Source: Nemertoderma westbladi (Eukaryota; Animalia; Xenacoelomorpha). From it: 64,000 nucleotides of DNA. This document shows, in pieces, positions 26,935-63,341 of the stretch. The DNA is taken from NCBI GenBank assembly GCA_032718475.1, contig JAUCBJ010002523.1:1-64000 (forward strand), written 5' to 3'. A program made the position numbers and the translations under genes. The notes under the pieces are model-generated. The model had not been told where the DNA came from, made no database searches, and was given only the letters and a program-made list of their open reading frames with translations. The first letter of the stretch is position 1, and every line of letters begins with the position of its first letter.

Positions 26935-27145
26935 ACGTAAAAACTTTCTAAAATCCGACGCATTTTGATTAAATTACAGTAATGTAATATGCCTATTCAT
27001 ATTGGTACACATAAATCCGTAGGTAATTCTATTGGCGCAGTGGTCAGATGGTTAAGGCGTTGGTTACATTACAGATAGGTTACGAGTTCGAATCCCAGTC
27101 GGGAATTTGCATTTGTGGGCAATTTATTTTCATTTGATCTAATTA
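26935..27145. repeat. 211-bp direct repeat, left copy (candidate long TSD of the LINE)
   Basis: Appears identical to 31897-32107 and abuts the (TA)n 3' tail of the LINE. Confidence 0.92.
27034..27105 (+). pseudogene. tRNA-derived sequence (SINE head or tRNA pseudogene), copy 1
   Basis: A box TGGTCAGATGG (27041) and B box GAGTTCGAATCC (27084). The acceptor stem does not pair. Confidence 0.65.
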
Positions 27146-27639
27146 TATATATATATATAATTTATTGACGACTTGGATTATATAAACAGTATCAATAATT
27201 AAATACTCATCACAAAATAAACCGAGGTTGTCCATATTTAAGCAATTAGAAAATAATCACGAAATCACAAAATATTCTATAAATGCGGTATACACATAGA
27301 AGGAAGAGCTTTTAATACGTTACATAAATGATACAATTATTCTAGATCGACAAAGGACGGAACGACTTATAAGAGGATAACTTTAATACCTTTAATACGG
27401 AACTAAAAACTATTCACCAATACGTTGTAATACTTTTTACTGAGAAAAACGGTAAATTCATAAAGGGAAACGTTTAGCAACCAAAAACACAACAATATAA
27501 GGTATAGATATAATTATTTATTTGCACAGATAAAAAAAAAATGAATATTCTACTTGACATAGAGATTCTGAAATGTAGTACCAGTTAATCGGCCAAATAA
27601 AACAGGAAATACGAACCGATACCAAAGATCTGGGTGGGC

Positions 27640-30600
27640 TTAATTATTTTCTTCCGCCAACAGTAGGATCAAGTGGACAGCCTCCATTACCTTGGCTTCA
27701 TCCTTGTTGTTCATGAAATCGGAAATTGAACACCATGATAGGTTGGGATCTCGTGGGATACGACTACAAGTGGTTATCAGATGAGCTTCATCTTGTATCG
27801 ACCCACAAGGGCAGATACGGCGATCAGGTGGGATCTTTTTCCAGCGACCTAATTCAACGGCTAGGCGGGTGGAGCCGAGCCTTAAGCGGGTCCAAGCGAT
27901 GCGATCAGGTTCGTTAAACGTTTTGCGGGTAATGTAACAAATGTGAGGTGATAAATTGGGGTTATATAACTGGTATAATTTTTTCTTTGTTGAGTCGACC
28001 TCGGAGCGAACATTTAATTTTAGTTTTTCCATGGCATCCATCACAAAGTCTTTCTTTGAAGAAAGAATATATTCAACCTGGCCCGCCATAGGCGTTCGAT
28101 GCAACATACATTGGTCTAGTACCATCATCAGAGGTTTGTGAATCTCTTCATGTTCGATCATGTTACACAAAAAGTCGTATTGCCGTTTCAATATAAGTGG
28201 TTTAGGTTCGGGAACATTGGATTCGATATGGAGAATTTGTCTACACACATTGGGGCGGACCCCCATTAATAAGCATAGCATTTCCGTATACTGTTTGGAT
28301 ACTGGGGCTAAGTCGCCGGTTATCCACGTCTCGCAACCGTATAGAATGGCGGATGAAGCAGCCGCGCGAAATACCTGCAGCTTTAACCAAAATGGGCTGT
28401 AGTAATTCTTGGCTATGAAAGCACGGAACTTTGAAACTTGTTTCAGCTTTTCTTCGGCGTGTAACACGATAGCGGTTTTCGAACCACCGGTTTGAGTGAT
28501 AGGTGAGCCTAAATACAAATAGGAGTCTGTATTCTTTATAGCAACCGTATCGCAACTATAGGAAGGGACTGTTAAAACCAAGTCTGCTTTATCGTTTGCT
28601 TCCGATGCAGGACCAACTACGATAAATTTTGTCTTTTTGGTGTTTAATATCATACCGTACTCGCCGCAATATTCTAGAACCTTTTCCATCTTGGCTAGAC
28701 ATAAAGAACGGGAGGAAGCGAGAATAACAGAATCATCCATAAGGAGGAGAATATGTAGCCAATTTAGGAAACTATCGGGGGTGAAACATCGTAGCGCGGA
28801 TGAAAGCGGGTTTAGAAACATAGTAAATAGGTATCCACTGCTGGGACCTCCTTGGAGAACCCCCACGCGGGAATTTATTTTAGATTTCCCTAGGATACTG
28901 ACCGTTTTAGAGTACATTAACTGGAGCATGATCAGCATTCTTGAGCTGCATCCCATCGATTTGAGTAGTTCAAACAACTTTCCACGAGGGACTTTATCAT
29001 AGGCTGTTCGGAAATCTATGAATACAATGAATAGCTGATGCTTTTTGGACTCTGCAAAATCAATAAGGAGGCGAAGAGTAAGGATTTGTTCTAAACAACC
29101 ACGGCCTTTAATGGCTCCCGCTTGCTCGCAGCTTGGAAGTCTCCACGAAATTAGGCGGTGAAAAAAAATAGTGTCCAGTATTTTGTAAATGGTATTTAAC
29201 ACGCTAATTCCTCGGTAGTTTGAGCATTGTGACTTAACGCCACGTTTGAAGACAGTGATTAATCTAGAGAAACCCCACAGCACAGGGTATGCACCAGTCA
29301 GGAATACTAGATTCAACAGAGAGAGCAGCTGCAATATCCAGGTGAACGGCAAAAGTTTAAAGAAACCCGGTGAGATACCATCGGGGCCAGGGGCTTTCCC
29401 AGGTTTAATGACGTTAATAACATCTTTCAGCTCGCTTAAAGATATAGGGCTATCAAGATCGTTATTGCATGAATCTGTCTCTAACAATGGGGGATCTGGG
29501 GACTTGTTGACACCAGATGGATTTAATAAACTAGAGAAATGGGTGGCAAATTCTGCCTCTGAAGGCTCTATCTCCGAATTGGACGGATTATATGGACTTG
29601 CATTTAATTCACCCCGCCAACCGATTCTTGCCCACATGTCCTTAGCACTGCAGTTGTCTAACATGTGTTGCCAGACCTGCCATTGGGGCACTGATGTAGG
29701 AATTCGGGGGTAACTATGCACGTGTTTAACAGAGGCTTCTGATGCGGCCTTGTAGATTGAGTCTGTGAACGTTGCTGCTAAATCATTAATATTCATTCGG
29801 ATGTTTAAATCGTCAACATTAACTAGCGATTTATTTAGGATGGCTTGAAACTTTGTAGTATCAACGCATGAGGTATCAAAATATAGTTTCTTAGCACATA
29901 TAGGTTTACAAGGATTTTTCAACAGGTGACAGTAAGAGCCTAAAAGGTCAGCTCGTTCAAGAAGACAGGCAGACGAGATGAAACAAAATTTAGTAATATA
30001 CAGGCTAAACTCTACCCCGGCGTGGTTTGATGGCCAATCGAAGTCCAACAGAGTGTTAAAATCCGTGAATCCGGATATCAGGTCTCCAGAGCAAAGTACA
30101 CGGTCCAATTCAGAGATATATCCAGACCTGCGTTTAAATGTTAGATTTCCACTGAAATACGACCCATTCAATGTCTCGAGGTAGCTCAAATTAACTAATG
30201 AGCAGTCTTTACACAATTGAATAAGCCGAGCACCATGAGCGTTTATAGTTCTATCATGTGGGGTATGGTACCAGTATTCATTAGTATTCAGATCTGCTAG
30301 ACGGACCCCGCATTGAGCATTTAGATCGCCAAATAAAACAAATTTAGAGTTTGTCGAAGCGAGGAAGATTGCTGCCTGAAGTTTGGACCAAATATTGGAT
30401 GAAAAATAAGGTGAGTTTGATGGTGGAATATATACAGCGTAGAAGTGAATATTTGGGGCAAAATCGAGTTTGAACGATATCAAATCATGTTCCATATTCA
30501 TACAAATAATCGAACTGGCCAAATAGTTTTTAACCAAAACAGCTACTCCACCGCGATGAGCTGTTTTTACATCAGGAAACCGTAAAACATTAAACCCTGA

Positions 30601-30756
30601 CACCCGGAAATTAAAAATAGCTTTTACTTCAAACAGAGCTACTATATCATACTGTGAAAGTTTTTGCAATATAACAGAGTTGTGCAGTTTATCCCTGATA
30701 CCATCAATATTCCAACTAAGAAACTTCAACCGGTCAGATTTGTGATGAGCATTCAA
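27640..30756 (-). CDS. LINE ORF2: AP endonuclease + reverse transcriptase + C-terminal Cys/His motif
   Basis: SWNIDG, GDLNA, ELDRVL, SNHAG (APE); KAPGPDG, NYRGISV, FIDFRTAYDKV, GVLQGGPSS, LLMDD, YLYLG (RT); CPCGSIQDEAHLITTC. Confidence 0.95.
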   Translation of the reverse strand: MNAHHKSDRLKFLSWNIDGIRDKLHNSVILQKLSQYDIVALFEVKAIFNFRVSGFNVLRFPDVKTAHRGGVAVLVKNYLASSIICMNMEHDLISFKLDFAPNIHFYAVYIPPSNSPYFSSNIWSKLQAAIFLASTNSKFVLFGDLNAQCGVRLADLNTNEYWYHTPHDRTINAHGARLIQLCKDCSLVNLSYLETLNGSYFSGNLTFKRRSGYISELDRVLCSGDLISGFTDFNTLLDFDWPSNHAGVEFSLYITKFCFISSACLLERADLLGSYCHLLKNPCKPICAKKLYFDTSCVDTTKFQAILNKSLVNVDDLNIRMNINDLAATFTDSIYKAASEASVKHVHSYPRIPTSVPQWQVWQHMLDNCSAKDMWARIGWRGELNASPYNPSNSEIEPSEAEFATHFSSLLNPSGVNKSPDPPLLETDSCNNDLDSPISLSELKDVINVIKPGKAPGPDGISPGFFKLLPFTWILQLLSLLNLVFLTGAYPVLWGFSRLITVFKRGVKSQCSNYRGISVLNTIYKILDTIFFHRLISWRLPSCEQAGAIKGRGCLEQILTLRLLIDFAESKKHQLFIVFIDFRTAYDKVPRGKLFELLKSMGCSSRMLIMLQLMYSKTVSILGKSKINSRVGVLQGGPSSGYLFTMFLNPLSSALRCFTPDSFLNWLHILLLMDDSVILASSRSLCLAKMEKVLEYCGEYGMILNTKKTKFIVVGPASEANDKADLVLTVPSYSCDTVAIKNTDSYLYLGSPITQTGGSKTAIVLHAEEKLKQVSKFRAFIAKNYYSPFWLKLQVFRAAASSAILYGCETWITGDLAPVSKQYTEMLCLLMGVRPNVCRQILHIESNVPEPKPLILKRQYDFLCNMIEHEEIHKPLMMVLDQCMLHRTPMAGQVEYILSSKKDFVMDAMEKLKLNVRSEVDSTKKKLYQLYNPNLSPHICYITRKTFNEPDRIAWTRLRLGSTRLAVELGRWKKIPPDRRICPCGSIQDEAHLITTCSRIPRDPNLSWCSISDFMNNKDEAKVMEAVHLILLLAEENN

Positions 30757-31706
30757 AAATTCAGATTAAATTTGTCTATTATAACGTCGTCCTTTTTTAC
30801 AACTCGATGTACTGGATCATACGAGATAACGTGGCCTCTGTTTGCAGGATTCCCTTTTTCAAGCCTTTCAACTTCACGTAGACGGCCGATTTCTTTACGT
30901 ATAATAGGATGAACATCGGATTTGATAAATACTTTCCCAAAATTGTCATCATTCTTTAACTTTTTCAAAGCAGGGAATATCTTTCTGCGATCAGCTTCTG
31001 CCGAATTCTGAGACAGAGTAAGCAGAATGGGCCTTGGGTTAGGTTTATCAGGGACAAACTGACCAAGGCGCTCAACTTTGTAATTAGAAACTTTGATCCC
31101 GATTGCGCTAAAGATTGCATCGCATTGATCATTGTCTTTATCCTCGCTGGGCGGGTTGTTTTCAACGACCCCCCGTACAATAAGCTTTTGAATTCTCATT
31201 TGACGGTCAATGTACTCGCAAAACCGTTGTTGGGCTCCACATGTAGCACGGAGGTCGCAATTTTCTTGTTCAAGAGTGGTGACACGTGTTCCTAAGGCGC
31301 TTATGTGCTCGGTCATCATAGAGCTAAATATGGATTTCAGCTGACCTACAGAGAGCGAGCTCACTGAGGAGCTATCATCAATGGTGGGGGGGTGAAGGCC
31401 CGGAGACGGCGTGAAGTTCGGAGGACATGGAGCCGGCGGATAAGACTGAGGTGGTCCTGACCCAATAGGGTGTTGTTGCCAAATTGAGCGCTGGTCGGTA
31501 GTGAATCCAGGAGCTGTCTGACTGTAACTTGGCCAAACCTGAGTGGAATTTAACTGGGCATGTTGAGATTGGAGGGGCTGGGGCCCAGATACCGGTAGGC
31601 CTAAATCCGATAAAGATTGTGACCTACCAAGGAAGCATGCATCGCAAAGGCCACCTGGTTTTAATCGTGTTTGGTGAGCGTCACATCTTTTACAATTTCC
31701 CATTTC
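30753..31706 (-). CDS. LINE ORF1 (CxxC..CxxC, Pro/Gln-rich linker, coiled coil, RRM-like C-terminus)
   Basis: MGNCKRC..LCDAC; ALGTRVTTLEQENCDLR; KLIVRGVVE..VERLG..PRPILLTL. The frame is open from 31859; the ATG of MGNCKRC near 31703 is the likely start. Confidence 0.85.
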   Translation of the reverse strand, partial: EMGNCKRCDAHQTRLKPGGLCDACFLGRSQSLSDLGLPVSGPQPLQSQHAQLNSTQVWPSYSQTAPGFTTDQRSIWQQHPIGSGPPQSYPPAPCPPNFTPSPGLHPPTIDDSSSVSSLSVGQLKSIFSSMMTEHISALGTRVTTLEQENCDLRATCGAQQRFCEYIDRQMRIQKLIVRGVVENNPPSEDKDNDQCDAIFSAIGIKVSNYKVERLGQFVPDKPNPRPILLTLSQNSAEADRRKIFPALKKLKNDDNFGKVFIKSDVHPIIRKEIGRLREVERLEKGNPANRGHVISYDPVHRVVKKDDVIIDKFNLNF

Positions 31707-31896
31707 ACACAATTTCGAGCGTTCAGCGGTTGTCAATTGACCAACAGGTTCAACAATGAGCAACAATGAGCAAAATAACCGTAACCCAATATGTAATACA
31801 GTAATCCTCTCGTAAAATAATATGTATGTACTGATGCAGGATGCAGTTTTGATCACCAAATTCGTTTATAGGCCTATAAATCATGTAGTAAAAACT

Positions 31897-32107
31897 ACGT
31901 AAAAACTTTCTAAAATCCGACGCATTTTGATTAAATTACAGTAATGTAATATGCCTATTCATATTGGTACACATAAATCCGTAGGTAATTCTATTGGCGC
32001 AGTGGTCAGATGGTTAAGGCGTTGGTTACATTACAGATAGGTTACGAGTTCGAATCCCAGTCGGGAATTTGCATTTGTGGGCAATTTATTTTCATTTGAT
32101 CTAATTA
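31897..32107. repeat. 211-bp direct repeat, right copy, including tRNA-like copy 2 (31996-32067)
   Basis: Appears identical to 26935-27145. Confidence 0.92.
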
Positions 32108-32109
32108 GA

Positions 32110-32230
32110 TAAGCCAATGAGGTGCGTACAACGTATGGAACGATGAGTTGGGCCAATCATAGGGCATATAACATCTTATTGCTCCAATGTGAGGCCATGG
32201 AATGCTCTGGAAGATTCTAGCGGATTCTAT
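32110..32230 (+). promoter_or_regulatory. LTR-like promoter segment: three CCAAT boxes and a heat-shock-element-like array
   Basis: agccaatg, ggccaatc, ctccaatg; gGAAtgCTCtgGAAgaTTCtaGCGgaTTCt at 32199-32228. Confidence 0.4.
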
Positions 32231-39901: not shown

Positions 39902-41333
39902 GTTTGTTTGTACAGTTGAATGCCTACTACTATACTGCAGTTAAAGCAAGTCTAGTAATTCAGTATCAACTGTTAGCCTAGTAATTAATTACCGATATCG
40001 TTACTCAATGTAACACGATATATATATAATATATTAGAATACCGGTATACACTTATAGTATATATATAAGTATTATTACAGACTAGGGTTTGTCACAGAA
40101 TACCGGTATATAATTTCAGCACAAATATATATAAATATATAATAAGCCTACCGTGAATACCGGTATACAGCTTACACTTATAGTATATATAAGTATAATT
40201 ATGGACTAAAATTAATTACAGAATACTGGTATATAATTTCAGCATAAATTTATACAAATAAATATAATAAGCCTATAGTAAATACTGGTATGTCAATTAT
40301 TTTATAATAACTAAATTTCTGAATTTTAGGATTACTTTCCTTTACTTTGTTACTGTTATTAAGCAGTAGTCTAACTGATATTAAGACCTAATTGATGTAT
40401 GGCAGGCCTACTATTTTATAAATTGGTTTGAGTTGATTTATAATATATATATACCCTTATAATGGGTTTTTTGACAATATTTGAAATAAATGTTATTATT
40501 TCTGGTAAGGAGTCACTACACAGAAGCTGTACGCTCTCAGTGAAGTGCTACTTGTTGGACACTAAAACAAATAATTATACTTGACTAAGTTACTTATTAC
40601 TACAAATTACGTACAATTACAGGTGAGATTACAATCTCTAAATAAACACAAAAATTACACGTACAAATTTTAGGGTAATTTTACAGGAAATCTACAAACC
40701 AGCCTAACAAGGGGTTAGAGTTTCTGGTTATTACAACGGACAGGATACTACGGTATTTGAAAATAATAAAGCAGTAGAAAATAAATTGCGTTGTCCAGAT
40801 AAGAAAATACCACCGTCTGACGACTTATAGTCTTTAGCTGTACAGCTCTATAAGTACTACATTATGTACCCGGAATGTCCCTACCTAGAAGTTAATTACC
40901 GCAGCCAACCAGAGCTAACGTACCTATTAACCACTTTACAACACAAATATACTGCCTACACACTAATTACCTTCGGAAACCACTGTACACTAAACCCTAA
41001 ATTAGGTACAAGTACTTATACAACAAATAACCAGCAGTTAAATATACTTGTATAGCTAAAAGAACCACGGTATCTGCTGGAGTGACTAGAGCATAAAATC
41101 ACCAGTCTTTACCTACGCCAAACAGCCCTGATGTAGTACCGGGGTTAATTTAACTATAACGGTATGTATAACAAGCACAATTACTGTAGGAATAAACTTG
41201 GGGGTGTGTTGTGTATGTTGCGAATAATCGCATAAACTCTGAATAATAAATATTACGCTACCCGTACAGACTACACAAACAAAATACAAACCAAATGCTG
41301 GCAGACTACTATCAAGCCTAAATAAACTAGGTT

Positions 41334-41379
41334 AGCGCTACTGATGAGGCCTGTCAGGCCGAAACGTGCGTATAGCGCT
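41334..41379 (+). ncRNA. Minimal type-I hammerhead ribozyme, copy 1
   Basis: Stem I AGCGCTA/TAGCGCT; core CTGATGA; stem II GGCCT-gtc-AGGCC; GAAA; short stem III AC-gtgc-GT; predicted cleavage after GUA (41372). Confidence 0.93.
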
Positions 41380-41651
41380 GGTTCAACCCCCGGTGACGCG
41401 CTCCCATTTTTTCCACTTCTGAACAAACCCATAATATTACACCTTTAATTACAGTTGCAACAGCTCATCTCCAATTTATTTAATTAATATCACCTGGCAG
41501 CAATACCGAGCTGAATATTTATTTATTTGTACTTCCCTCCTGTTTCACTCTAGCATACTTGAGGCCGTTAGGTCCGCTGTTAGAGATAGAATATTTGCAA
41601 CTTAAGACTGCCCGTTCAATAGAAGTGGATTAGGTGGGACTGCGAGTGTCA

Positions 41652-41752
41652 GGGGCTAGTGGCTGAGCTGGTTAGCGCTACTGATGAGGCCTGTCAGGCC
41701 GAAACGTGCGTATAGCGCTGGTTCAACCCCCGGTGACGCGCTCCCATTTTTT
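41652..41752 (+). promoter_or_regulatory. tRNA-like Pol III cassette enclosing the hammerhead (repeated at +340 and +680)
   Basis: A box TGGCTGAGCTGG (41660-41671), B box GGTTCAACCCC (41720-41730), T6 (41747-41752). Confidence 0.7.
41674..41719 (+). ncRNA. Hammerhead ribozyme, copy 2
   Basis: Identical to copy 1. Confidence 0.93.
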
Positions 41753-42013
41753 CCACTTCTGAACAAACCCATAATATTACAACTTTAATTACAGTTGCAA
41801 CAGCTCATCTCCAATTTATCTAATTAATATCACCTGGCAGCAATACCGAGCTGAATATTTATTTATTTGTACTTCCCTCCTGTTTCACTCTAGCATACTT
41901 GAGGCCGTTAGGTCCGCTGTTAGAGATAGAATATTTGCAACTTAAGACTGCCCGTTCAATAGAAGTGGATTAGGTGGGACTGCGAGTGTCAGGGGCTAGT
42001 GGCTGAGCTGGTT

Positions 42014-42059
42014 AGCGCTACTGATGAGGCCTGTCAGGCCGAAACGTGCGTATAGCGCT
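42014..42059 (+). ncRNA. Hammerhead ribozyme, copy 3
   Basis: Identical to copy 1. Confidence 0.93.
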
Positions 42060-42353
42060 GGTTCAACCCCCGGTGACGCGCTCCCATTTTTTCCACTTCT
42101 GAACAAACCCATAATATTACACCTTTAATTACAGTTGCAACAGCTCATCTCCAATTTATTTAATTAATATCACCTGGCAGCAATACCGAGCTGAATATTT
42201 ATTTATTTGTACTTCCCTCCTGTTTCACTCTAGCATACTTGAGGCCGTTAGGTCCGCTGTTAGAGATAGAATATTTGCAACTTAAGACTGCCCGTTCAAT
42301 AGAAGTGGATTAGGTGGGACTGCGAGTGTCAGGGGCTAGTGGCTGAGCTGGTT

Positions 42354-42399
42354 AGCGCTACTGATGAGGCCTGTCAGGACGAAACGTGCATATAGCGCT
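42354..42399 (+). ncRNA. Hammerhead ribozyme, copy 4 (mutated)
   Basis: Core is intact, but stem II has a mismatch (aggac) and GUA has become AUA. Confidence 0.75.
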
Positions 42400-43060
42400 G
42401 GTTCAACCCCCGGTGACGCGCTCCCATTTTTTCCACTTCTGAACAATAATATTACACCTTTAATTACAGTTGCAACAGCTCATCTCCAATTTATTTAATT
42501 AATATCACCTGGCAGCAATACCGAGCTGAATATTTATTTATTTGTACTTCCCTCCTGTTTCACTCTAGCATACTTGAGGCCGTTAGGTCCGCTGTTAGAG
42601 ATAGAATATTTGCAACTTAAGACTGCCCATTCAATAGAAGTGGATTAGGTGGAACCGAAACATGTGTATAGCGCTGGTTCAACCCCCGGTGACGCGCTCC
42701 CATTTTTTCCACTTCTGAACAAACCCATAATATTACACCTTTAAATAAACTACAGTATATGCAGACTCCGAAATGGTTAGTTCGTATGCGTTCTAACCGA
42801 GTAGTACGACTTATTCTTTCAGAGGGGATTTACCTTACAACACTGGATGCCCCCACCTTCCTAACTAGTATTTTATCGGACATACACTCTACACACACTG
42901 CAATCTCTTCGGACCTGACAACAGCCAGACAACAATCCAGCCTACAAATTATTTGTACAATTTGAGCGGGCTTACACGCCTTCTGCTCAATATAAACTTA
43001 CAGATAAATAAAACTGACAGAAATAAATAAGCTCCAAAAGAAACAAGGGGTGTACAGTCC

Positions 43061-44368: not shown

Positions 44369-47300
44369 AATGATAATTAATTGTTGTGAGTATGTGCTAG
44401 ATATAGCAGTAATAGTGCTATTCGGTTTGTAACATTATGAAACAATGTCTCATGTATACACTGTAGTGTTACAACTATGTGTAGGTAAGTCAATGTGTCA
44501 GTGTTAATATAGTATATTACATTTTTTATAATATATTGGTTTTACAGAGTGATGCTGGGTTTTAGCACTATTAATTTGACATTTTTTTATTGCGAAATTA
44601 GATTCACTGAAAAATTCCATGAATAAACTTTGCGAGACATTCCTAAACTATTCTTTGACAACAAATTGTCTATCTATCTATTTTGAGTAAAAAATGTGAA
44701 AATTAAAATGCAAGTCTTAAAACTGAGTAAGTACTGTTATATTTATTTAAAAATATGAAATTTCTTCAGTAAATGCGAGACTGCTGTAATCATCTATTTT
44801 TTTTAGTAAAAAATAATAAACTTACAGTATATATGTTGAAAACCAAGCATCATGCTACAGAAAAAATATTAACTTAAAATTCTTCACAAACTTATTAACT
44901 GAAAACAGTATCTAGCATATATCCAACGTTTAATTTTACATTTTTTTTTAGTCAAAGGTAGATTCACTGACATTGTTCTAGAACTTAATAGAAATCTGAG
45001 CTAGATATTGAAGCACTATCTTAAGGTAGGTGTGACAATGTGTGAAATATATTTCATGTATTATGATCAAGTGAGATATTGTTATGATTATGAAAGCTAG
45101 TATGTTTGTTTAGTTAATAAAATAATAATAAGGTTATGAAGTCATATTATAAGATTATAAGGTCATTCCATAATCGATACACAAATAGTATGTTACAACT
45201 GTAAATACAAGTGTTAACTACGTATTTGTCCTGGAAAATAAATAATCGACACCCAGGAAGATGTTCTATTTACACCACCTAGAGAAATGAATAATTTGGC
45301 AATTATCGGAGATGAAATACACTCTGTTCCCGCTGGGCGGCTTTATCCTGAATAAATTTAGAAACGCCTTCAAAGGGAGTTAATAAGTTCGTGAAGAATT
45401 TTAAGTAAATAGTATATAAGTTGATATTGTTTCTATAGGGTGATGTTTGGTTTTAAACATATATACTGTAAGGTTATTATTTTTTACTAAAAAAATAGCT
45501 GATTACAACAGACTCATATTTACTGAAGAAATTATTTCATATTTTTGAATAAATATAACAGTACTTACTCAGTTTTAAGGCTTACATTTTAATTTTCAAA
45601 TTTTTTACTCAAAATTGATAGATAGACAGTTTGTTGTCAAAGAATAGTTGAGGAATGTCTCGCAAAGTTTATTCGTGGAATTTTTCAGTGAATCTAATTT
45701 TGCAATAAAAAAAAATGTTAAATTAATAGCGCAAAACCCTGCATCACTCTGTAGAACCAATATCAACTCATAAGATCTAGTTTGTAACGCTGCTTCATCT
45801 ACTCAAAACTGTTTTTTCTCACGTTCAAACGTAATTAACCTGTCATTATTGTACTATGATTAATATAATCTATACACAAATAGTATGTTACAACTGTAAA
45901 TAAGTGTTTACTACATATTTGTCCTGGAAAATAAATAATTTACACTCAGGAAGATGTTCTACAATTTTTGTACAGTGGCCTATTATCAATCCCTCTGGTA
46001 TTGACTTATGTAAAGAATCTAAATTTAGTACACCGAGCATGATATAACCATCAGTTTCAGGTTCGAGCACCGAATCTGTGATACTACTACTACTAGGTCG
46101 AGTGGACTCGGACAGTGGAAATGAGATCCTTCCAGGCTTCCCGATTCTCCATAGTTGTTGCAATTTCGTTTCTCCCAAGTTCAGTATCCCTTTCAAGTTG
46201 ATCTATATATGTTATGGCCGGTCGTCCACGACTACGCTTTCCATGAGTTAGTTGCCAGAGAAGTAGATCTGGTATGACTTTACTTCGCCAGCGGTGCCCA
46301 CTGAATCTTAATCTGCGTTCACGGAGGGTGGTTGATACAGGTGGTATTGTACCATAAAGCTCGGCGTTTGTCATGTGTTGTCTCCAGCTGATTTTAGGGC
46401 TGCCCTTAGTAGTCTTATGTAGCAACCATCAATTCGTTGTTCAAGTGATTTAGTCAGTGTCCAGGTCTCACCCCCGTATAAAAATACACTTTCTTTCGAA
46501 TGACAGGTTAATTACGTTTGAATATAAGATGGAATGATAATTAATTGTTGTGAGTATGTGCTAGATATAGCAGTAATAGTGCTATTCGGTTTGTAACATT
46601 ATGAAACATGGTCTCATGTATACACTGTAGTGTTACAACTATGTATAGGTAAGTCAATGTGTCAGTGTTAATATAGTATATTAAATTTTTTATAATATAT
46701 TGGTTCTACAGAGTGATGCTGGGTTTTAGCACTATTAATTTGACATTTCTTTATTGCGATATTAGATTCACTGAAAAATTCCATGAATAAACTTTGCGAG
46801 ACATTCCTTAACTATTCTTTGACAACAAATTGTCTATCTATCTATTTTGAGTAAAAAATGTGAAAATTAAAATGCAAGTCTTAAAACTGAGTAAGTACTG
46901 TTATATTTATTTAAAAATATGAAATTTCTTCAGTAAATGCGAGACTTCTGTAATCATCTATTTTTTTTAGTAAAAAATAATAAACTTACAGTATATATGT
47001 TGAAAACCAAGGATCATGCTACAGAAAAAATATTAACTTAAAATTCTTCACAAACTTATTAACTGAAAACAGTATCTAACATATATCCAACGTTTAATTT
47101 TACATTTTTTTTTTAGTCAAAGGTAGATTCACTGACATTGTTCTAGAACTTAATAGAAATCTGAGCTAGAAATAGAAGCACTATCTTAAGGCAGGTGTGA
47201 CAATGTGTGAAATATATTTCATGTATTATGATCAAGTGAGATATTGTTATGATTATGAAAGCTAGTATGTTTGTTTAGTTAATAAAATAATAATAAGGTT

Positions 47301-48125
47301 ATGAAGTCATATTATAAGATTATAAGGTCATTCCATAATCGATACACAAATAGTATGTTACAATTGTAAATACAAGTGTTAACTACGTATTTGTCCTGGA
47401 AAATAAATAATCGACACCCAGGAAGATGTTCTATTTACACCACCTAGAGAAATGAATAATTTGGCAATTATCGGAGATGAAATACACTCTGTTCCCGCTG
47501 GGTGGCTTTATCCTGAATAAATTTAGAAACGCCTTCAAAGGGAGTTAATAAGTTCGTGAAGAATTTTAAGTAAATAGTATATAAGTTGATATTGTTTCTA
47601 TAGGGTTATGTTTGGTTTTAAACATATATACTGTAAGGTTATTATTTTTTACTAAAAAAATAGCTGATTACAACAGACTCACATTTACTGAAGAAATTTC
47701 ATATTTTTGAATAAATATAACAGTACTTACTCAGTTTTAAGGCTTACATTTTAATTTTCACATTTTTTACTCAAAATTGATAGATAGACAGTTTGTTGTC
47801 AAAGAATAGTTGAGGAATGTCCTGCAAAGTTTATTCGTGGAATTTTTCAGTGAATCTAATTTTGCAATAAAAAAAAATGTTAAATTAATAGCGCAAAACC
47901 CTGCATCACTCTGTAGAACCAATATCAACTCATAAGATCTAGTTTGTAACGCTGCTTCATCTACTCAAAACTGTTTTTTCTCACGTTCAAACGTAATTAA
48001 CCTGTCATTATTGTACTATGATTAATATAATCTATACACAAATAGTATGTTACAACTGTAAATTAAGTGTTTACTACATATTTGTCCTGGAAAATAAATA
48101 ATTGACACACAGGAAGATGTTCTAT
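44369..48125. repeat. Two ~1.6-kb direct copies (44369-45962 and 46534-48123), each containing a foldback element with ~310-bp inverted arms
   Basis: Both copies start aatgataattaattgttgtgag. About 44533-44850 is the reverse complement of about 45448-45763 (tacagagtgatgc...gcatcactctgta). A further inverted partial copy lies at about 48470-48690. Confidence 0.88.
46083..46495 (-). mobile_element. RTE-clade LINE 3' fragment
   Basis: ISWRQHMTNAELYG..RERRLRFSGH..LLLWQLTHGKRSRGRP; the stop codon is followed by (TAG)n. Confidence 0.9.
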
Positions 48126-50122
48126 TTACACCACCTAGATAAATGAATAATTTGACAATTATCAGTGATGAAATACACTCTGCTCCCACTGGACGGGTTT
48201 ATCCTGAATAAATTGAGAAACGCCTTCAAAGGGAACGGGAATAACAAGTATCGAGAAACAGCTTCATAACTTAATTATTATTATTTTATTAACTAAACAT
48301 ACTAGCTTTCATAATCATAACAATATCTCACTTGATCACAATACATCATATATATTTCACACATTTTTTGAAATTATTTTGTCGCGAAATTAAAAGCAAT
48401 CGTAAAGTAACAACTCCTGCCTGAACTGCTGCAGCAGCTAGCTGTGTAGGAATGTTTGAGTCATTAAATTATTAACTATACAAACATACTAGCTTTCATA
48501 ATCATAACAATATCTCACTTGATCATAATACATGAAATATATTTCACACATTGTCACACTTACCTTAAGATAGTGCTTCAATGTCTAGCTCAGATTTCTA
48601 TTAAGTTCTAGAACAATGTCAGTGAATCTACCTTTGACTAAAAAAAAATGTAAAATTAAACGTTGGATATATGCTAGATACTGTTTTCAGTTAACCTTTT
48701 AGCTGCCAAGTTCCCATTTTGTTCCCTCAAATTTAGATGTAAGCCAGAGCTACAAAATTTTATAGAATTTGACAAAAACACGTTTAGTGTATTAATTTAT
48801 TATGTGTGTTATAATATATTATGTAATAAATGAAAAAATAAAAAAAGTGTATTTTTGGTAAAAAATGGATACTGGGGCACCATTTCTAAAGTAACACTTT
48901 ATTAAAATAAGAACACCATTAATTGATGTAAATATGTTTGCTGCATAAAGCTAACATGTTATACTATATATTATAATAGAAATGTCAAATTTTGTAATAT
49001 TCGTTCAGGGTGCAAAAATGCAATTAAAAATTTTGGGAACAAAATGGGAACTTGGCCACTAAAGGGGCTTTATTATAATTATAAAGTAATAAAATTATTC
49101 CTGAAACTTTTATTTCTGCTGAAGTTCAGACCTATCAGCCTGTGTTCCTGTGTTTATCATATCTAAAAACTGGCTTTTCCTAAGACCAAGCCTTATCTAA
49201 GTCAAACACTACACTACAGCATCAAGCAAGACCATACTGCCATAGTCACAGACACCTACTGACTATACTGACAGTAGTAGGCGCTACTACCAGACTACTA
49301 CAGTACTAACTGTACTGCCGGTAGCTAACTGTACTACAACTGTACTTAGTACTAACTGTACTACCGCTACCGGTAGGCTTGTCTTCAAGTACGTACATTT
49401 CATCTGACAGTGTAGCACCCTGTCTGAAGGATGCGAAAAATCAATGGAGCCGGAGTTTTTTTTATTAGTTTTTATTATTTCTAGTATATTGGAGCCTTTG
49501 GGACGGACAGTGGAGTGACTCGCGCTGGTTATTGTTATTGTTGTGTAGCTACTACGTTGGCGAGAGGCACAGTGACGACAGTACTGTACACCAGCGCTGA
49601 GGATCTCTGGCTGTCCAGGGGCTGGTGCGGGGACCATATAGGCAGCCACGCCCGCTAGCCTTTATTATTATCAATAACTTCGATTGCTGTTCTTTATAAT
49701 GCAGTAATGGCGGCTTGTAGTTCCTTTTATGGTCGTAATAAAGGAAATAAACATTCAGAAGCGAACGACGTTCATCACACTGCAAGATAGATAGATAGAT
49801 AGATAGATTTATTTATACATTATGTAAAAACAATAACAAATACACCAAACAATGTACCGGTATAAAGGTATTGTCCAACATAACATATAGGATTACCCCT
49901 AAAGCTTTGCAGCTTATTTCCAAGGGGGTCCTTTATGTTACTTGGTTACAAATACAATATTACACTACGCTAACCTAAAACCAATATAAAACGTAATTAC
50001 ACTATGTACATGTACAACTTTACCGAGAGCGTGACAATGCCCGACTCAACGATAAAGATGTAATGTACAGAACAATTTATTATAAAACGTAATTACAGTA
50101 TAAATAGTAAATAATTAATAAA

Positions 50123-53100
50123 CTAATAACTTACTGTAGGACTATTGTACCTATTTTTACATTGCACACGGAGATGAGATTTAACTGCAGATTTAAAAGA
50201 ATGTTGATTATTTAGGTTTTTAATTTCATTAGGCAGAGCGTTCCAATTTTTTATGCCGTTAAAAAAGAAAGTATCAGATTCAAAGGATTTACAATTCGGG
50301 AGGTAGAAGTTTGAAGCACTAGCTCTGGTACTGTAAGAGTGTCTATCGCGTACTCTGTTGAATTTTTGTTTTAGGTAATTGGGACATTTACCATTATACA
50401 CTTTATGCACATGGTTAAGGCGTAGCTGCTTAACTCTACTATCTAAGTTAAGTAGTCCAGATTCAGAAAAGTCATCTGGAGTTAGGTGGTGCCTAGGTTT
50501 GTAGTCTTTAATAAATCGTACTACTTTATTCTGAGCTACTTGTAATTTACATTTAAGCTGTTTGGTTAAGCCTTCATACCAAGAAGAGCACGCATAGTCC
50601 ATGTGACACTGTATTAAAGAAGAGCAAAGTAACTTGCGGGAGTCGGTGTTCAAACTATTTTTATTTCTGTATAGAAACCTAAGCCTACTGTTAACTTTCG
50701 AGAAAATATTTTTCACTGTACTTTCTCCTGATAAGCAGTTATCCAATGTGGCGCCTAAATATTTAATTTCCTTTTTATTTTCAATCTTATGTCCATTACT
50801 AGTGACTTCAAACTTAGTTACCTTCTTTAACTTTCTTTTGGAACCAAACAAAATACTTTCAGTTTTACCGTAGTGAATGGATAGCTTATTATCAACCAAC
50901 CACTCATTACAGGATTCTAGAACTGCACTTAACTTTTGGGAAATATGGATAGGATCTTTATGAGAGAAAATAAGAGCACTGTCGTCGGCATATAAAATGA
51001 GTTTAAAATCGGGATCTATACTACTTATCATATCATTTACATAGCATACAAAAAGCAGAGGACCTAATATACTACCTTGCGGTACACCACAGGTAATCTC
51101 TTGTACAGTAGACAGTGATTTGCTAATGACTACAGTTTGACCTCTGTCTGACAGGTAGGACTTGAACCAGTCTATAGAACCTACACCCATCAGGCCTAAC
51201 TTACCAAGCAGAATTTTGTGATCTACAGTATCGAAAGCCTTTTGTAGGTCCAACATTACCATACCAGTATATAAACCCTTTGCGTTATTACATCTAATTG
51301 TATCAGTTAAGTTAATAAGGCAGGTGTCTGTAGAATATGATTTACGAAAACCGGACTGAAGTTCATAGATCAGATTTAGCCTACTAAGATGTGCCTCCAG
51401 CTGTAGAAAAACAGAACGTTCTAGAATTTTAGATACAATACTTAAGATACTAACAGGTCTGTAATTACAGGGTTCTACTTTACTATTCTTTTTATACAGA
51501 GGAACAACCTTAGCTAATTTCAGTTCGTCTGGTACTACATTATCTACGATAGAGTAATTAATAATAAAAGTAATAGGCACTTTAAGTACTTCAGCACCAT
51601 CCTTAAGAAAACGGGCAGGTATTAGATCTAGACCGGTACTTTTTGAGGCTGATAGGCTAAGTAGATTTTTAAAAACGAAACCCTCAGAAACGGGTTTTAA
51701 AAATAACTTTTCTGAATTTTGTAACTTTTCTAAATAAAAATTATTTAGAGTTTCGGACCCTATACTATATTTATTACTTGATAACGGTAATTTCTTAACT
51801 AAATTAGAGGCAACATTAGTAAAATAATTATTAAATAAATTATTAACTAGAGTATGATCATGAATCAGCTCACCGTTATCTTGCAGAACAATATTCGATT
51901 TAGATTTAAGGTTTTTATAACCTAAAGATTTTAGGGTAGACCATAGACTTTTTGGATTATCTTTATTCTCACTTATTTTGTTGTACAAATATTCAGATTT
52001 AGCTTTTTTTATTTCCCGTTGGACAAGGTTTCTATATTTGCAGTAATTATTATAATCAGCTAAAACACGGTATTTCCTAAATTTATACAAATAGTTATCT
52101 CTTTCTCTGATATTACTAAGAATACCCGAGGTCATCCAGGGCTCAGTGCGTTGTTTAAGACTAATTTCTTTAATTGGTGCTACAGTATTAAGTGCCTTTA
52201 AAAATATATCTTTAAAAACAGTGTACGCAAGGTTAATGTCAGCGGCCTTAAAACAGGGTTCCCATTCAGAATTAACTAACAAACTTAAAAAGCGTTCCTT
52301 GCTGTAATTTTTCATAGACCTAACTGTTACTGTTTTATGATCCCCGAAAAAAGATTTTTGTGTCTTTCTTGTGCAAAAAACTATAAAATGATCGCTTAGA
52401 CCTATAGGTAAAACCCCAGATTGTGAAATAATATCGGTATTATTACAAAGGATGTGATCTAGTAAAGTAGAAGTTTTACTGGTAATTCTGGTAGAATCTC
52501 GAATAATTTGTTTTAAACCAAACAAATTTAAAATACTTTGGTACTGTTTACAGATGGGGGATGCTTTGTGATGGTAACAGATATTAAAATCACCTAAGAA
52601 ATATATTTCACAGTCTGACCTAAGATTACATAAAATTGTATTTTCAAAATTTTGCAAAAAATCTGATTGTTTAGGGGGCCGATATAAAGTACCGATTAAA
52701 ATAGGTTTAGTTTTAGGAAGTAAAAGTTCCACCAGTAAAACTTCGTCACAAGTCTCTAAATCTTCCCTACGATTAAAAGCTAAATCACATCGAATGTAAG
52801 TACAGACACCACCACCGTGTCTGTCCCTATCCTTACGTAAAACTACGTAATTATCAATATAAATTTCTCCATCAGAAACACTATCATCGAGCCAAGTTTC
52901 AGAGATTGTTAAAACTGCTGGGTTGGATTTATTGATTAAAATACGAATTTCGGAAAGTTTTGGAAGCAGAGATCGTGCGTTTAAGTGCAAAAAATGCAGA
53001 CCTTTTTTCTTAAAAAAATTAAAAGTTTCACTCTCAGCATCACTTGGAGTTTGCAGAGGCGATGTGAGAAATGAATCGTCGGTTTCTGATTCTAAAATTG

Positions 53101-53331
53101 TATCATGAAAGGGAAGTTCGGTAAAAATACAGCTATTGCAGAGAAAACTTGGTTCAAGATTGTTTCTGGTGGAGAATAAATTACTGCGTTTCCTACGGTA
53201 ACATTTTAAATGTACAAATGTGTCACAACTCTCGCATTGGACGATCTTACTCCGAGAGTTTGTTCCTCGTTGACAGACGGGACAGTTGATCTTTGGGGCC
53301 CGCGTCCTGCTGGGTCCTGGGTTGGTCTCAA
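50123..53331 (-). CDS. LINE polyprotein: PHD finger, AP endonuclease, reverse transcriptase (its 5' part lies at 54235-54525, beyond the MITE)
   Basis: CPVC..CESC..H..C..CNSC; HLNARSL, SETWL, GDFN, SDH; NYRPVSIL, LDLQKAFDTVDH, GVPQGSILGP, YADD, KYLG. Confidence 0.95.
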
Positions 53332-54234
53332 CCCAGTGAAAAGTGCGCAAGCGTATCGCAAGCGTGCAACGCAGGCGTATCTCATGTGATTCCCAAGAGT
53401 TATGGCCCGACCTTTACGCAAGCGATCTACTTGAGTTATGTCACATAAATATCGCAACAACTTGCATTCAGTCGCATAAAACTCACATGCGATTCACTTG
53501 CGACTTTCAAGCGTCATGGCGCATAAATATCGCAAAAATCTACTGGTTGTGATTTTTGTGTAATATATTGAGACCTTTTGTGGCAGAAAATATGATACAG
53601 TAGTTGATTATTCCACTACTGTTTTATACTATTGGCTTCCATATCATCTGCCTACTGTACTTACCTTACATTACATTACATTACATTACATTACACTCTC
53701 TAGACTTAGAACATTAGACATGCTGTATGAATCAATACTAGAAATGGTTGGTTATATACAGGATAATACAAATAGATTAAAACAACCATGATACACTTTT
53801 AACTATTCCCTATAATTTTCAATTCTATAAAATATATTAATATAATCTCTGTATTCGACAGCCATATTAGATAATTCGTATTCATCCATTTTATATTTTA
53901 AAACTATTTATTTCTTGATAGGCAACTTTATTTTAATTAATATTCTTTAGTGTAATTAAAAACATGCGATTCGCATGGGAATTAACTCTTGAGAATCTCA
54001 TGGTGTAAAACATGCGTAAAATAAGCGTTAAATGAGGTGTGATTCGCATGCGGTTTTCATGCACGGAATCACATGCGTAAAATAAGTTGTGAATCGCATG
54101 CGTGGAATCGCTTCCCTATTTTACATGTGATTCACATGCGAATCACACGAGTTTTATCGCTATTTATTGAGCCGCAATAAAAACGCATGACGCTTTAAAA
54201 TCACTTGCGATACGCATGCGCATTTTTCACTGGG
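53332..54234. mobile_element. Non-autonomous CACTA/EnSpm-type DNA transposon (MITE)
   Basis: TIRs CCCAGTGAAAA.TGCGCA.GCGTATCGCAAG at both ends, 2-bp TSD AA, subterminal gcgattcgcatg-like repeats and internal (ttaca)n. Confidence 0.85.
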
Positions 54235-57494: not shown

Positions 57495-57757
57495 TGCACT
57501 GGCTTGATTTATTTATTTTTACCCATATAAACATATACATAATAATTAAGGCACACATAATTATTGTAATATAAATTATTGTAATATATATCAGTATATA
57601 TATAAATATAATATAATAAAAATAAACTATTAGGAAGGCATTTTATACAACCATGTTCAGCATGATCCGGTCTCTTAAATATAATTTTGAGTTGAACGAA
57701 TTATGTTTTTGACAGACCAATATCAAGCAAATAAAATTATTTGGAAACAGAGAAACA

Positions 57758-60700
57758 ACACGTTCGTGGGGCCTTCGCGCAGCACGAGGCCCAGTTATTA
57801 GATACAAATTAAAATTGAGCGACTGTATCACAAAATCAGGTTTTGAGAAATTTACCCACACCACCAATCAATCAAAGAAAGGGGGACAGTACGTGTTCAC
57901 CCCTTTTAATCCCCCCCCCCCCCCCAACCTTCCCAACCACCAATACATAACCGGGACATCTACCACCCACGGAAGGGTAGCACGAACTTATTTCCAATCG
58001 CACGTTAAATATGCAAAGCCAGGTGGTTTATAGGAATATAATAAACGCAGTACTCGTTTTCATTATAAGCCTCTTTGCGTTCGTCCTGTTTTGTATTTAA
58101 ATATATTTCTTAAACGCAGGCTGACGATATTTATAATAATAATAACTAGGGATGCGATCAATATGTGAAGCCAGGTGGTTTATATAATAATTTAGTCAAC
58201 GAGGTACTCGTCTTCATTATATGCCTCGTTGCGCTCGTCGCTTGTCCTGTTTTGTCATAAAATATTTTTCCTAAACGCAGACTGACGATCTTTATACAGT
58301 TATAACTATGCGAAGTTTCGAAACTGTGCGATACATCTATGTGGAGATGTGTGATATGTGGAGATGTGTGATACAACGCCAACGCATCTTATGCCGATGT
58401 AGTAATATGGGTATTGAAATAATATTAAATCAATGTACACTCTTAAAGCTGCAGCGAAAAAATGTAGCTAATTTCCTAGGTTACATATAAAATAATAATA
58501 TTATTTTTAAGAACATTAATTTTACTACTTTGCAAAAATTCAATTAAAAAATAACCAGACATATACATTGTGGAATAAACTATTTCAGATAAGCCTACAC
58601 AACAGCCATGCCATGGATGGTATTTATGTTATTATATCTGTCATTTACCTGAGATAGCAATACAACACTTATAGTAGAGTCAATACAGGAAGGATGTTGG
58701 AATGCTGCCTGGGCTGGAATAGCAATACTGGTTGCCTATTACAATTTCTCTCTGGTTAGTCTACAGCCACAACTCCAAGCTAGCTCCACACCAGCAGAGA
58801 CTTGACCAATAATCATTCCCAGCAACTAGCTGCCTTAACACACATCCTTCCATCTATGTACCAGCATGTTAGCCAATAAATGAGCAGTATTTAATGAGAA
58901 TCAATTTTTTATGACGTTTTAATTACTTTAGATCAATTAAAGACACAATTAATAAAGCAAATCACTTGAACTAATTAAAAACTATAATAGAATGGCGTAT
59001 GTGGATTACATCTGTATAATTTTTAAGTATAATTATTTAAATCTTATACTGTAAAACAATTAATTTCCTTTAACAGGCAGGTTGAAAATGGTGTTTTTAC
59101 CGTAATCAACTTAATTAACTAATTAACTGCTATTATCTTAGCTTCTCGAAGGCCACACGGAAATTCTACTTGGAAAATTTCTAAACTTTTGCCAAACAAC
59201 ATGTGTACCAAGTTTGGATAGATTTCATCAAAGATTGGCTGAGTTATTAACGTTTAAAATTGGACGCGACAGAACGACAGAACGTCAGAACGACACGTTC
59301 GTGGGGCCTTCGCGCAGCACGAGGCCCAGTTATTAGATACAAATTAAACTTGAGCGACTGTATCACAAAATCAGGTTATGAGAGATTAACCAACACCACC
59401 AATCAATCAAAGAAAGGCGGACAGTACGTGTTCACCCCTTTTAATCCCCCCCCCCCCACCCTTCCCAACCACCAATACATAACCGGGACATCTACCACCC
59501 ACGGAAGGGTAGCACGAACTTATTTCCAATCGCACGTTAAATATGCAAAGCCAGGTGGTTTATAGGAATATAATAAAAGCAGTACTCGTTTTCATTATAA
59601 GCCTCTTTGCGTTCGTCCTGTTTTGTATTTAAATATATTTCTTAAACGCAGGCTGGGACGATCTTTATAATAATAATAACTAGGGATGCGATCAATATAT
59701 GAAGCCAGGTGGTTTATATAACAATTTAGTCAACGCAGTACTCGTCTTCATTATATGCCTCGTTGCGCTCGTCGCTTGTCCTGTTTTGTCATAAAATATT
59801 TTTCCTAAACGCAGACTGACGATCTTTATACAGTTATAACTATGCGAAGTTTCGAAACTGTGCGAGTAACTGTTGATACATCTATGTATGTGGAGATGTG
59901 TGATACAATGCCAACGCATCTTATGCCGATGTAGTAATATGGGTATTGAAATAATATTAAATCAATGTACACTCTTAAAGCTGCAGCGAAAAAATGTAGC
60001 TAATTTCCTAGGTTACATATAAAATAATAATATTATTTTTAAGAACATTAATTTTACTACTTTGCAAAAATTCAATTAAAAAATAACCAGACATATACAT
60101 TGTGGAATAAACTATTTCAGAAGCCTACAGAACAGCCATGCCATGGATTGTATTTATGTTATTATATCTGTCATTTACCTGAGATAGCAATACAACACTT
60201 ATAGTAGAGTCAATACAGGAAGGATGTTGGGATGTTGAATTTAAAGAATGATGTCTGGGCTGGAATAGCAATACTGGTTGCCTATTACAGTACAATTCCT
60301 CTCTGGTTAGTCTACAGCCACAACTCCAAGCCAGCTAGCTCCACACCAGCAGAGACTTGACCAATAATCATTCCCAGCAAATAGCTGCCTTACACACACA
60401 TCCTTCCATCGTACCAGCATGTTAGCCAATAAATGAGCAGTATTTAATGAGAATCAATTTTTTATGACGTTTTAATTACTTTAGATCAATTAAAGACACA
60501 ATTAATAAAGCAAATCACTTGAACTAATTAAAAACTATAATAGAATGGCGTATGTGGATTACATCTGTATAATTTTTAAGTATAATTATTTAAATCTTAT
60601 ACTGTAAAACAATTAATTTCCTTTAAAAGGCAGGTTGAAAATGGTGTTTTTACCGTAATCAACTTAATTAACTAATTAACTGCTATTATCTTAGCTTCTC

Positions 60701-62570
60701 GAAGGCCACACGGAAATTCTACTTGGAAAATTTCTAAACTTTTGCCAAACAACATGTGTACCAAGTTTGGATAGATTTCATCAAAGATTGGCTGAGTTAT
60801 TAAAGTTTAAAATTGGACGCGACAGAACGACAGAACGACAGGTTGATTAATGGTACCACTACGCTAAGGCTCACTCACTTCGTGGCTCGCCCCACAGAAC
60901 GACACGTTCGTGGGGCCTTCGCGCAGCACGAGGCCCAGTTATTAGATACAAATTAAAATTGAGCGACTGTATCACAAAATTAGGTTATGAGAGATTAACC
61001 AACACCACCAATCAATCAAAGAAAGGCGGACAGTACGTGTTCACCCCTTTTAATCCCCCCCCCCCCACCCTTCCCAACCACCAATACATAACCGGGACAT
61101 CTACCACCCACGGAAGGGTAGCACGAACTTATTTCCAATCGCACGTTAAATATGCAAAGCCAGGTGGTTTATAGGAATATAATAAACGCAGTACTCGTTT
61201 TCATTATAAGCCTCTTTGCGTTCGTCCTGTTTTGTATTTAAATATATTTCTTAAACGCAGGCTGGGACGATCTTTATAATAATAATAACTAGGGATGCGA
61301 TCAATATGTGAAGCCAGGTGGTTTATATAACAATTTAGTCAACGCAGTACTCGTCTTCATTATATGCCTCGTTGCGCTCGTCGCTTGTCCTGTTTTGTCA
61401 TAAAATATTTTTCCTAAACGCAGACTGACGATCTTTATCCAGTTATAACTATGCGAAGTTTCGAAACTGTGCGAGTAACTGTTGATACATCTATGTATGT
61501 GGAGATGTGTGATACAACGCCAACGCATCTTATGCCGATGTAGTAATATGGGTATTGAAATAATATTAAATCAATGTACACTCTTAAAGCTGCAGCGAAA
61601 AAATGTAGCTAATTTCCTAGGTTACATATAAAATAATAATATTATTTTTAAGAACATTAATTTCACTACTTTGCAAAAATTCAATTAAAAAATAACCAGA
61701 CATATACATTGTGGAATAAACTATTTTAGAAGCCTACACAACAGCCATGCCATGGATTGTATTTATGTTATTATATCTGTCATTTACCTGAGATAGCAAT
61801 ACAACACTTATAGTAGAGTCAATACAGGAAGGATGTTGGGATGTTGGATTTCAAGAATGATGTCTGGGCTGGAATAGCAATACTGGTTGCCTATTACAGT
61901 ACAATTCCTCTCTGGTTAGTCTACAGCCACAACTCCAAGCCAGCTAGCTCCACACCAGCAGAGACTTGACCAATAATCATTCCCAGCAAATAGCTGCCTT
62001 ACACACACATCCTTCCATCGTACCAGCATGTTAGCCAATAAATGAGCAGTATTTAATGAGAATCAATTTTTTATGACGTTTTAATTACTTTAGATCAATT
62101 AAAGGCACAATTAATAAAGCAAATCACTTGAACTAATTAAAAACTATAATAGAATGGCGTATGTGGATTACATCTGTATAATTTTTAAGTATAATTATTT
62201 AAATCTTATACTGTAAAACAATTAATTTCCTTTAAAAGGCAGGTTGAAAATGGTGTTTTTACCGTAATCAACTTAATTAACTAATTAACTGCTATTATCT
62301 TAGCTTCTCGAAGGCCACACGGAAATTCTACTTGGAAAATTTCTAAACTTTTGCCAAACAACATGTGTACCAAGTTTGGATAGATTTCATCAAAGATTGG
62401 CTGAGTTATTAACGTTTAAAATTGGACGCGACAGAACGACAGAACGACAGAACGACAGGTTGATTAATGGTACCACTACGCTAAGGCTCACTCACTTCGT
62501 GGCTCGCCCCACAGGTTGATTAATGGTACCACTACGCTAAGGCTCACTCACTTCGTGGCTCGCCCCACAT
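57758..62570. repeat. Three tandem ~1.55-1.65-kb units, Helentron/DINE-like
   Basis: Units start at 57758, 59293 and 60902. They contain aacatgtgtaccaagtttgg, (gacagaac)n, and hairpin-like ggggcct..aggccc and gctcactcacttcgtggctcgccc. Confidence 0.85.
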
Positions 62571-63341
62571 GTTCCTATCTGTTCAACCGTAAGTAGTCAT
62601 CGTTTTATTTAAGCAGGGACACAAAACGCAACCCTGTTTAAATACTGTAAGTAAAATTATCACATTGGTTACATTTTTGCATATGTGTTTCGCCGGGATT
62701 TGGCTCATCAGCTACACTAACCCGTGCAGGACACATGTTAATCAAACTAACTACACCAAAACCCAGCTAAACACACACACATACATAATAAACAAAATAG
62801 TATTGCATTCCAGATCAAATAAGCAATCATTTCCTTAGCAACACTATATGAGATAATTTGTCTAGCGCATGGTTGCTAATTATAATAAAAATAAAATAAT
62901 AGGAAGGCATTTTATAGAACCATGTTCAGCATGATCCGGTCTCTTAAATATAATTTTGATCTGGAATGCAATACTATTTTGTGTGTGTTTAGCTGGGCTG
63001 CTAGGCAACATATAAACAAGGTTCACGGTGGTATACAGCATGAGTTAAGCATAAATATTATACGCACTGAAATTGAATAGTTCTCTAATAAAAATATAAG
63101 ATTTCGATATGCAGTTAGCGTGTGCAGCAAAGCTGTTCCCTAAAATTACGTACAAGTTCAACAATCGTTCTATTAGAAACACAACATTGAGTTTTTTCGG
63201 AAATTTGCATGGAGAAGGGCATTATACAATCTTTCAACCATCAAAGGTTATGTCGGCATCAAATACTCCCTACATACAATTAAATGTGATAAACAATCTA
63301 ACTAAATTTAAACGAAATTAATTAAGGGTAGATCAACTTCC

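Follow-up and report, generated by a model that had tools for sequence, protein, structure and literature searches.

A 340-bp Retrozyme-like Element of Nemertoderma westbladi with a Predicted Hammerhead Ribozyme between Probable tRNA-derived Pol III Boxes

Results

A Tandem Insertion and Its Surroundings

The window, by which we mean the whole stretch of 64,000 nucleotides analysed here (positions 1 to 64,000 of contig JAUCBJ010002523.1 of Nemertoderma westbladi), resembles animal nuclear DNA in its GC content (30-46%), its 20-bp satellite and its LINE open reading frames (ORFs). On the forward strand, repeat analysis delimits a tandem insertion at 41330..42741 that comprises about 4.15 units of 340 bp with 98% identity between units, and sequence comparison of the insertion flanks reveals an 11-bp target-site duplication (left copy 41319..41329, right copy 42742..42752). 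The first unit (unit 0) is 5'-truncated; it begins within the end of the A box described below, most of which is gone. Two sites distinguish units 1 and 2, and at the last array junction the A box is missing together with the first (5') half of the hammerhead. The GC content of the element is 45%, and among the ORFs listed for the window none of at least 120 aa lies inside the array. The array and its duplication are the footprint of a retrotransposed multimer and not a stand-alone gene of 100 bp. An earlier note on this DNA, which had described the motif of unit 1 correctly, omitted that it sits in a mobile 340-bp unit with a target-site duplication. The locus is probably a recent tandem insertion of a non-coding element, 340 bp long and present in many copies, of the type of the animal retrozymes.

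Several other repeats and ORFs surround the insertion. The satellite occupies positions 1-11208 in about 559 copies and has a strong strand skew. Identical 215-bp direct repeats (26935-27149 and 31897-32111), each containing a tRNA-like head with A and B boxes (27033 and 31995, respectively), flank a LINE on the minus strand (ORF2 27640-30765, ORF1-like 30753-31865), and an open LINE ORF of 1,096 aa with PHD, endonuclease and reverse transcriptase domains lies at 50123-53413 (minus strand). A duplication of about 2.16 kb with nested inverted repeats of 180-232 bp is found at 44369-48694, three tandem copies of a unit of about 1.6 kb at 57750-62320, and a cysteine-rich ORF of 234 aa, hydrophobic at its ends and without a Pfam match, at 15771-16475 (minus strand).

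The Predicted Hammerhead Ribozyme

Both a motif search and the Rfam model RF00163 place a predicted type I hammerhead at 41674..41719 of unit 1. It comprises a 7-bp helix I (41674-80/41713-19), the core (41681-87), helix II (41688-700), the GAAA (41701-04), helix III (41704-11), palindromic with the majority allele, and the GUA (41710-12), with cleavage predicted after 41712. The core, helix II and the GAAA occur four times in the array: the motif search finds an intact hammerhead in unit 0 (41330..41379, without its A box), and the comparison of units finds an identical one in unit 2 (42014..42059) and one in unit 3 (42354..42399) in which pairs of helix II and helix III are disrupted by two changes. 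In a focused Rfam scan, RF00163 matched positions 41675-41718 with 23.2 bits (E=8.7e-4), which is under its gathering score of 34, and at the gathering threshold the whole window gave no Rfam match. The hammerhead that the earlier note had placed in the position of a tRNA anticodon arm is supported, if below the gathering score; the tRNA model RF00005, which that note had named for the same search, gave no match at E<=10.

Helix III has two pairs and its loop is 4 nt long; hammerheads of this canonical metazoan type I form need a second copy for good cleavage (excerpts of PMC4209133). In the predicted fold of a two-unit transcript, a double hammerhead costs 6.7 kcal/mol versus 16.2 for two monomers, and is 9.5 kcal/mol better. 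Elsewhere in the window, an unrelated hammerhead-like motif is present in a single copy at 62667-62723 (minus strand); its helix III is minimal, a base is bulged ahead of the core, and GGTTA/TAACC form a distal pairing.

Promoter Motifs and Probable tRNA Ancestry

The hammerhead of unit 1 is preceded by GGGG (41652-55) and by an A box at 41660..41671, a 12-nt form of TRGYnnARBGG that fits the published consensus apart from one extra base (excerpts of PMC7279448). It is followed by a B box at 41720..41730, which agrees with GGTTCRAnYCY at 11 of 11 positions, and by T6 (41747..41752), a candidate Pol III terminator and the sole run of at least four T in the unit, a scarcity of T runs that is not significant (P(<=1 run)=0.44). 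Both boxes are present in three units, with A boxes at 41660, 42000 and 42340. The gap from A to B is 48 nt, longer than the usual 30-40 bp (excerpts of PMC7279448). All of these elements, including the spacing of about 48 nt, lie where the earlier note had reported them, and both tRNA-like arms do overlap bases of hammerhead helix I, as it had observed.

Within the window the strict A+B pattern is found only in the array. When the unit was shuffled 20,000 times with its dinucleotides preserved, and another 20,000 times with the hammerhead also held fixed, the pair appeared in neither set. We also built a weight matrix from 309 of 346 phage and prokaryote tRNAs (37 without anchors were dropped, and 115 are Ala owing to retrieval); no shuffle of the unit in 3,000 reached the score of the A+B pair. 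Whether or not Ala is included, this score stands at about the 30th percentile of the real tRNAs, and in the window it is exceeded only by the SINE-like heads at 27033 and 31995. The box pair is beyond chance. The flanks of the hammerhead likely derive from a tRNA gene; the two box-bearing halves align to the ends of real tRNAs better than any of 150 shuffles. It is likely that the boxes continue to act as an internal Pol III promoter.

No donor tRNA was identified among the 346 phage and prokaryote tRNAs, the best candidates (His, Gly, Met and Ala) falling within 2 points of each other. The G-U at the third "acceptor" pair resembles the alanine identity element, a lead only. Searches for relatives gave 52 loci in metagenomes by pattern, 3 of them with an upstream A-box match and none resembling the unit by eye, no matches in the genome contigs of a prokaryotic collection, and 41 loci in viral contigs that match a GGTTAG-core pattern. 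At one metagenome locus (L002:469-557, with the same call in a second locus, likely L030) ARAGORN calls an 89-nt tRNA as Ile, with a long variable arm and a GAT anticodon, whose anticodon loop reads like a hammerhead core.

Predicted RNA Folds

ARAGORN makes no tRNA call natively, nor at its default threshold in any of 903 in-silico excisions; when relaxed, it yields only sub-threshold calls in another register, from 41644 (8 of 903 excisions at 95%, none at 100%). The letters of the acceptor-like pairing GGGGC/GCTCC proposed in the earlier note are present, but this 5-bp stem is displaced from the canonical register by 5 nt on either side, a canonical 7-bp acceptor has 3 of 7 pairs in either register, and the T-arm-like loop has 8 nt instead of 7.

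Our fold probabilities are equilibrium predictions without tertiary contacts. For a 101-nt RNA with the alleles of the copy in the window, the most stable predicted structure is a four-way junction in which helix I is broken (T arm about 0.6, helix I 0.28, the D arm as drawn 0.06), and the probability of a cloverleaf together with the hammerhead is 7e-9. With the majority alleles (unphased), the probability of helix I is 0.85-0.93 and that of the closing stem GGGGC/GCTCC reaches 0.66, and the D and T arms drop to 0.00-0.01. A core-blocking hairpin (41657-63/41677-83, probability 0.54-0.63) is confined to the alleles of the window copy and was dropped as a feature of the family. The CCA region varies among family copies.

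In the unit-length RNA, a rod is predicted between a 5' arm (41621..41655), which is complementary to the 3' end region and its T6, and a 3' arm (41728..41760) that contains the "acceptor" 3' strand, CCA and T6 (z -3.7; 1 of 200 shuffles equally good). This rod would draw in T6 and the CCA region as well as GGGG, and a cloverleaf has a probability of 5e-10. The common transversions fall at unpaired sites, and two common transitions, at 41646 and 41655, break low-probability rod pairs. The fold of the whole circle is no better than that of shuffles (z -1.1). These predictions suggest that the likeness to a tRNA matters at the level of DNA and that the RNA folds as a hammerhead on a rod.

The Family across Sequencing Runs

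Of nine sequencing runs listed, five contain the stretch or a part of it, with no RNA run given among these five; contigs of four of the nine were aligned to one unit at 80% likeness. Matching contigs numbered 2,092, 1,069 and 100 in the DNA runs X1, X4 and X5, contig depth not being a copy number; the family is large and extends beyond this locus. With the majority allele 41708A, which accounts for 81-97% of the summed depth, helix III is a perfect palindrome; 41700T preserves a G-U pair, and loop II varies freely. None of the variants common in X1 or X4 falls in the core or helix I, and three rare changes found only in X5 (5-9%) touch the core or helix II.

The earlier note had proposed that the conservation of the boxes be compared with that of the rest of the unit. 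The boxes are nearly invariant, with 0 of 11 positions variable in the B box, where no variant reaches 3% in the four runs, and 1 of 12 in the A box, where the single variant stays inside the consensus purine. The region just upstream is variable at 14 of 39 positions, but the AT-rich remainder is likewise variable at only 5 of 117 positions, the comparison has no power within the species, and the boxes are not demonstrably better conserved than the rest of the unit.

The aligned contigs contain 19 joints, some of which may be alleles of one event; among the 15 listed are 9 skips and 3 strand changes. Six of these 9 skips resume at 41708-41711, 2-5 nt before the predicted cut (naive P=8e-9; 7e-6 when counted as 4 of 7 events). 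The placement of these joints beside the cut is suggestive only, since it misses the cut itself by those 2-5 nt and the common 41708 polymorphism may bias the alignment. Among the 18 listed of 475 loose ends, the 3' ends cluster at 41781 and 41799; together with the strand-switching joints, they resemble Penelope-type insertions (excerpts of 10.1101/2021.04.23.441226). A loose-end consensus at 41745, seen in 10 and 13 contigs with an agreement of only 0.5-0.6, hints at members without the A box, the hammerhead and half of the B box. A 371-nt contig of run X2 (a run only guessed to be RNA, under another organism label) circles the unit once as a single haplotype near the window copy; we left it out of the evidence because a tandem DNA array would look alike.

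Discussion

We consider it reasonably probable, on sequence evidence, that the array consists of an element of the retrozyme kind in which a hammerhead lies between likely tRNA-derived boxes that are likely active as an internal Pol III promoter. Transcription by Pol III would start near 41652, and most transcripts would stop at T6, giving RNAs of about 100 nt with one ribozyme whose 2-bp helix III is predicted to be weak. Transcripts that read through T6 would meet no further T run before the next unit and would thus carry two hammerheads, which are predicted to pair via the palindromic helix III and to excise a 340-nt monomer. By analogy with the retrozymes described in PMC7229834 and 10.64898/2026.07.22.740005 (excerpts), a host tRNA ligase might then close the monomer to a circle and a Penelope-type reverse transcriptase copy it into a head-to-tail array. 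As the predicted cut falls between the boxes, their order would be reversed in the linear monomer, and the promoter would be restored only in copies that span the junction. Several observations weigh against parts of this scheme: T6, 35 nt past the cut, would hinder the production of unit-length RNA from this promoter and may also be explained as part of the rod, and no Penelope-type ORF is present among the 9 window ORFs scanned. The long A-to-B gap, the conservation of the boxes at no more than the level of the unit and the unremarkable fold of the whole circle also count against it.

The same retrozyme might instead carry the boxes as a relic of a tRNA-derived ancestor, its unit-length RNA being supplied by host read-through transcription. 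Such read-through has been proposed for retrozymes generally (excerpts of PMC7761336), T6 would halt Pol III after about 100 nt, the ends at 41745 hint at deletion copies that have lost box and ribozyme sequence, and in a family so homogeneous intact boxes need no selection. The perfect, invariant B box, set against the variable sequence upstream, and the confinement of the lone A-box variant to the consensus purine speak for the other side, and we hold this relic to be rather unlikely. It is far harder to dispense with tRNA ancestry altogether and regard the boxes as a by-product of helix I, its loop and the rod. The GGTT at the end of the A box can indeed pair with AACC of the B box as a distal helix I, the unrelated motif at 62667-62723 is flanked by GGTTA/TAACC as well, and no tRNA isotype stands out as donor. 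But when the hammerhead and the distal helix are both held fixed, 14 of 20,000 shuffles have the B box and none the pair, none of the 41 viral loci with the GGTTAG-core pattern carries a B box, and the likeness of both halves to real tRNA ends would go unexplained; we judge this origin very improbable.

We give slightly less credence still to the idea, put forward in the earlier note, that the functional product is a Pol III RNA of about 100 nt which switches between two folds, a cloverleaf like that of a tRNA and an active hammerhead. The four-way junction of the window alleles, in which the T arm outweighs helix I, and the closing stem of the majority alleles lend it some colour. The idea nonetheless fared badly: it must contend with the lack of any tRNA call, an acceptor with 3 of 7 pairs, the low probability of the drawn D arm, the vanishing joint probability of cloverleaf and hammerhead, the loss of both arms with the majority alleles, a variable CCA region and a mobile unit of 340 nt. 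Returning to the promoter-bearing retrozyme that we favor, a more ambitious reading, rather doubtful as a whole, goes further. In it, a hammerhead would have replaced the anticodon arm of a tRNA gene and turned that gene into a self-promoting retrozyme; the cut would mimic pre-tRNA splicing, leaving a 5' half with a cyclic phosphate and a 3' half with a 5'-OH; with the promoter split, only circle-derived copies would be live; and a leaky T6 would set the balance between short ribozyme RNAs, which could dimerise with long transcripts and trigger them in trans, and read-through RNAs that become circles.

Comparison with Known Systems

By all the criteria that sequence can test the element is a non-LTR retrozyme, and its membership in that group is very probable; the SINE/retrozyme kinship suggested in the earlier note is supported in this respect. 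The animal non-LTR retrozymes (excerpts of PMC7229834, Cervera and de la Pena 2020; 10.64898/2026.07.22.740005, Li, Clavereau and Pollet 2026) have tandem units of 150-450 bp with one type I hammerhead each, a GC content under 50%, a target-site duplication of more than 4 bp, a weak palindromic helix III and a high copy number. The element shares these traits, with its 340-bp unit, complete hammerheads in the consecutive units 0-2 (the Rfam score being below gathering), 45% GC and 11-bp duplication, and adds to them an A box, a B box and T6. Retrozymes seem not to harbour promoters, according to excerpts of a review (PMC7761336), and the words "tRNA" and "promoter" are absent from the main text of 10.64898/2026.07.22.740005.

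The Penelope-like element pLTR hammerheads (excerpts of PMC4209133 and 10.1101/2021.04.23.441226) likewise show a dimer-type hammerhead, 5' truncation, partial tandems and inverted pieces; the present element differs from them in having no ORF and in its canonical helix sizes (helix I 7 bp, helix II 4-5 bp). With tRNA genes and tRNA-derived SINEs it shares the ordered A and B boxes and the downstream T run, but it has neither a cloverleaf nor an A-rich tail, and its insertion is tandem and circularly permuted.

The Schistosoma Sm-alpha and Sj-alpha elements (excerpts of PMC6765202 and PMC2770079) similarly unite a tRNA-derived Pol III promoter with a type I hammerhead in a tandem unit of about 335 bp, and likewise need tandem copies to propagate; to judge from its sequence, the present unit also brings type 2 Pol III boxes and a hammerhead together. 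Sm-alpha-like SINEs are, however, called as tRNA-Gln genes, whereas this element receives no tRNA call, and Sm-alpha has its promoter at the 3' end of the cleaved transcripts, whereas here the ribozyme lies between the boxes, the B box lies past the cut and T6 follows. The unusual point is this nesting, by which the predicted cut would split the promoter, unlike that of Sm-alpha; we did not meet such a layout in the open-access literature searched. A family whose boxes bracket the ribozyme and whose candidate terminator follows it offers a sharp test of where the abundant transcription of retrozymes comes from. If the promoter is active, it would link the tRNA-derived SINEs to the circular-RNA retroelements and provide a simple reason for their obligate tandem copies.
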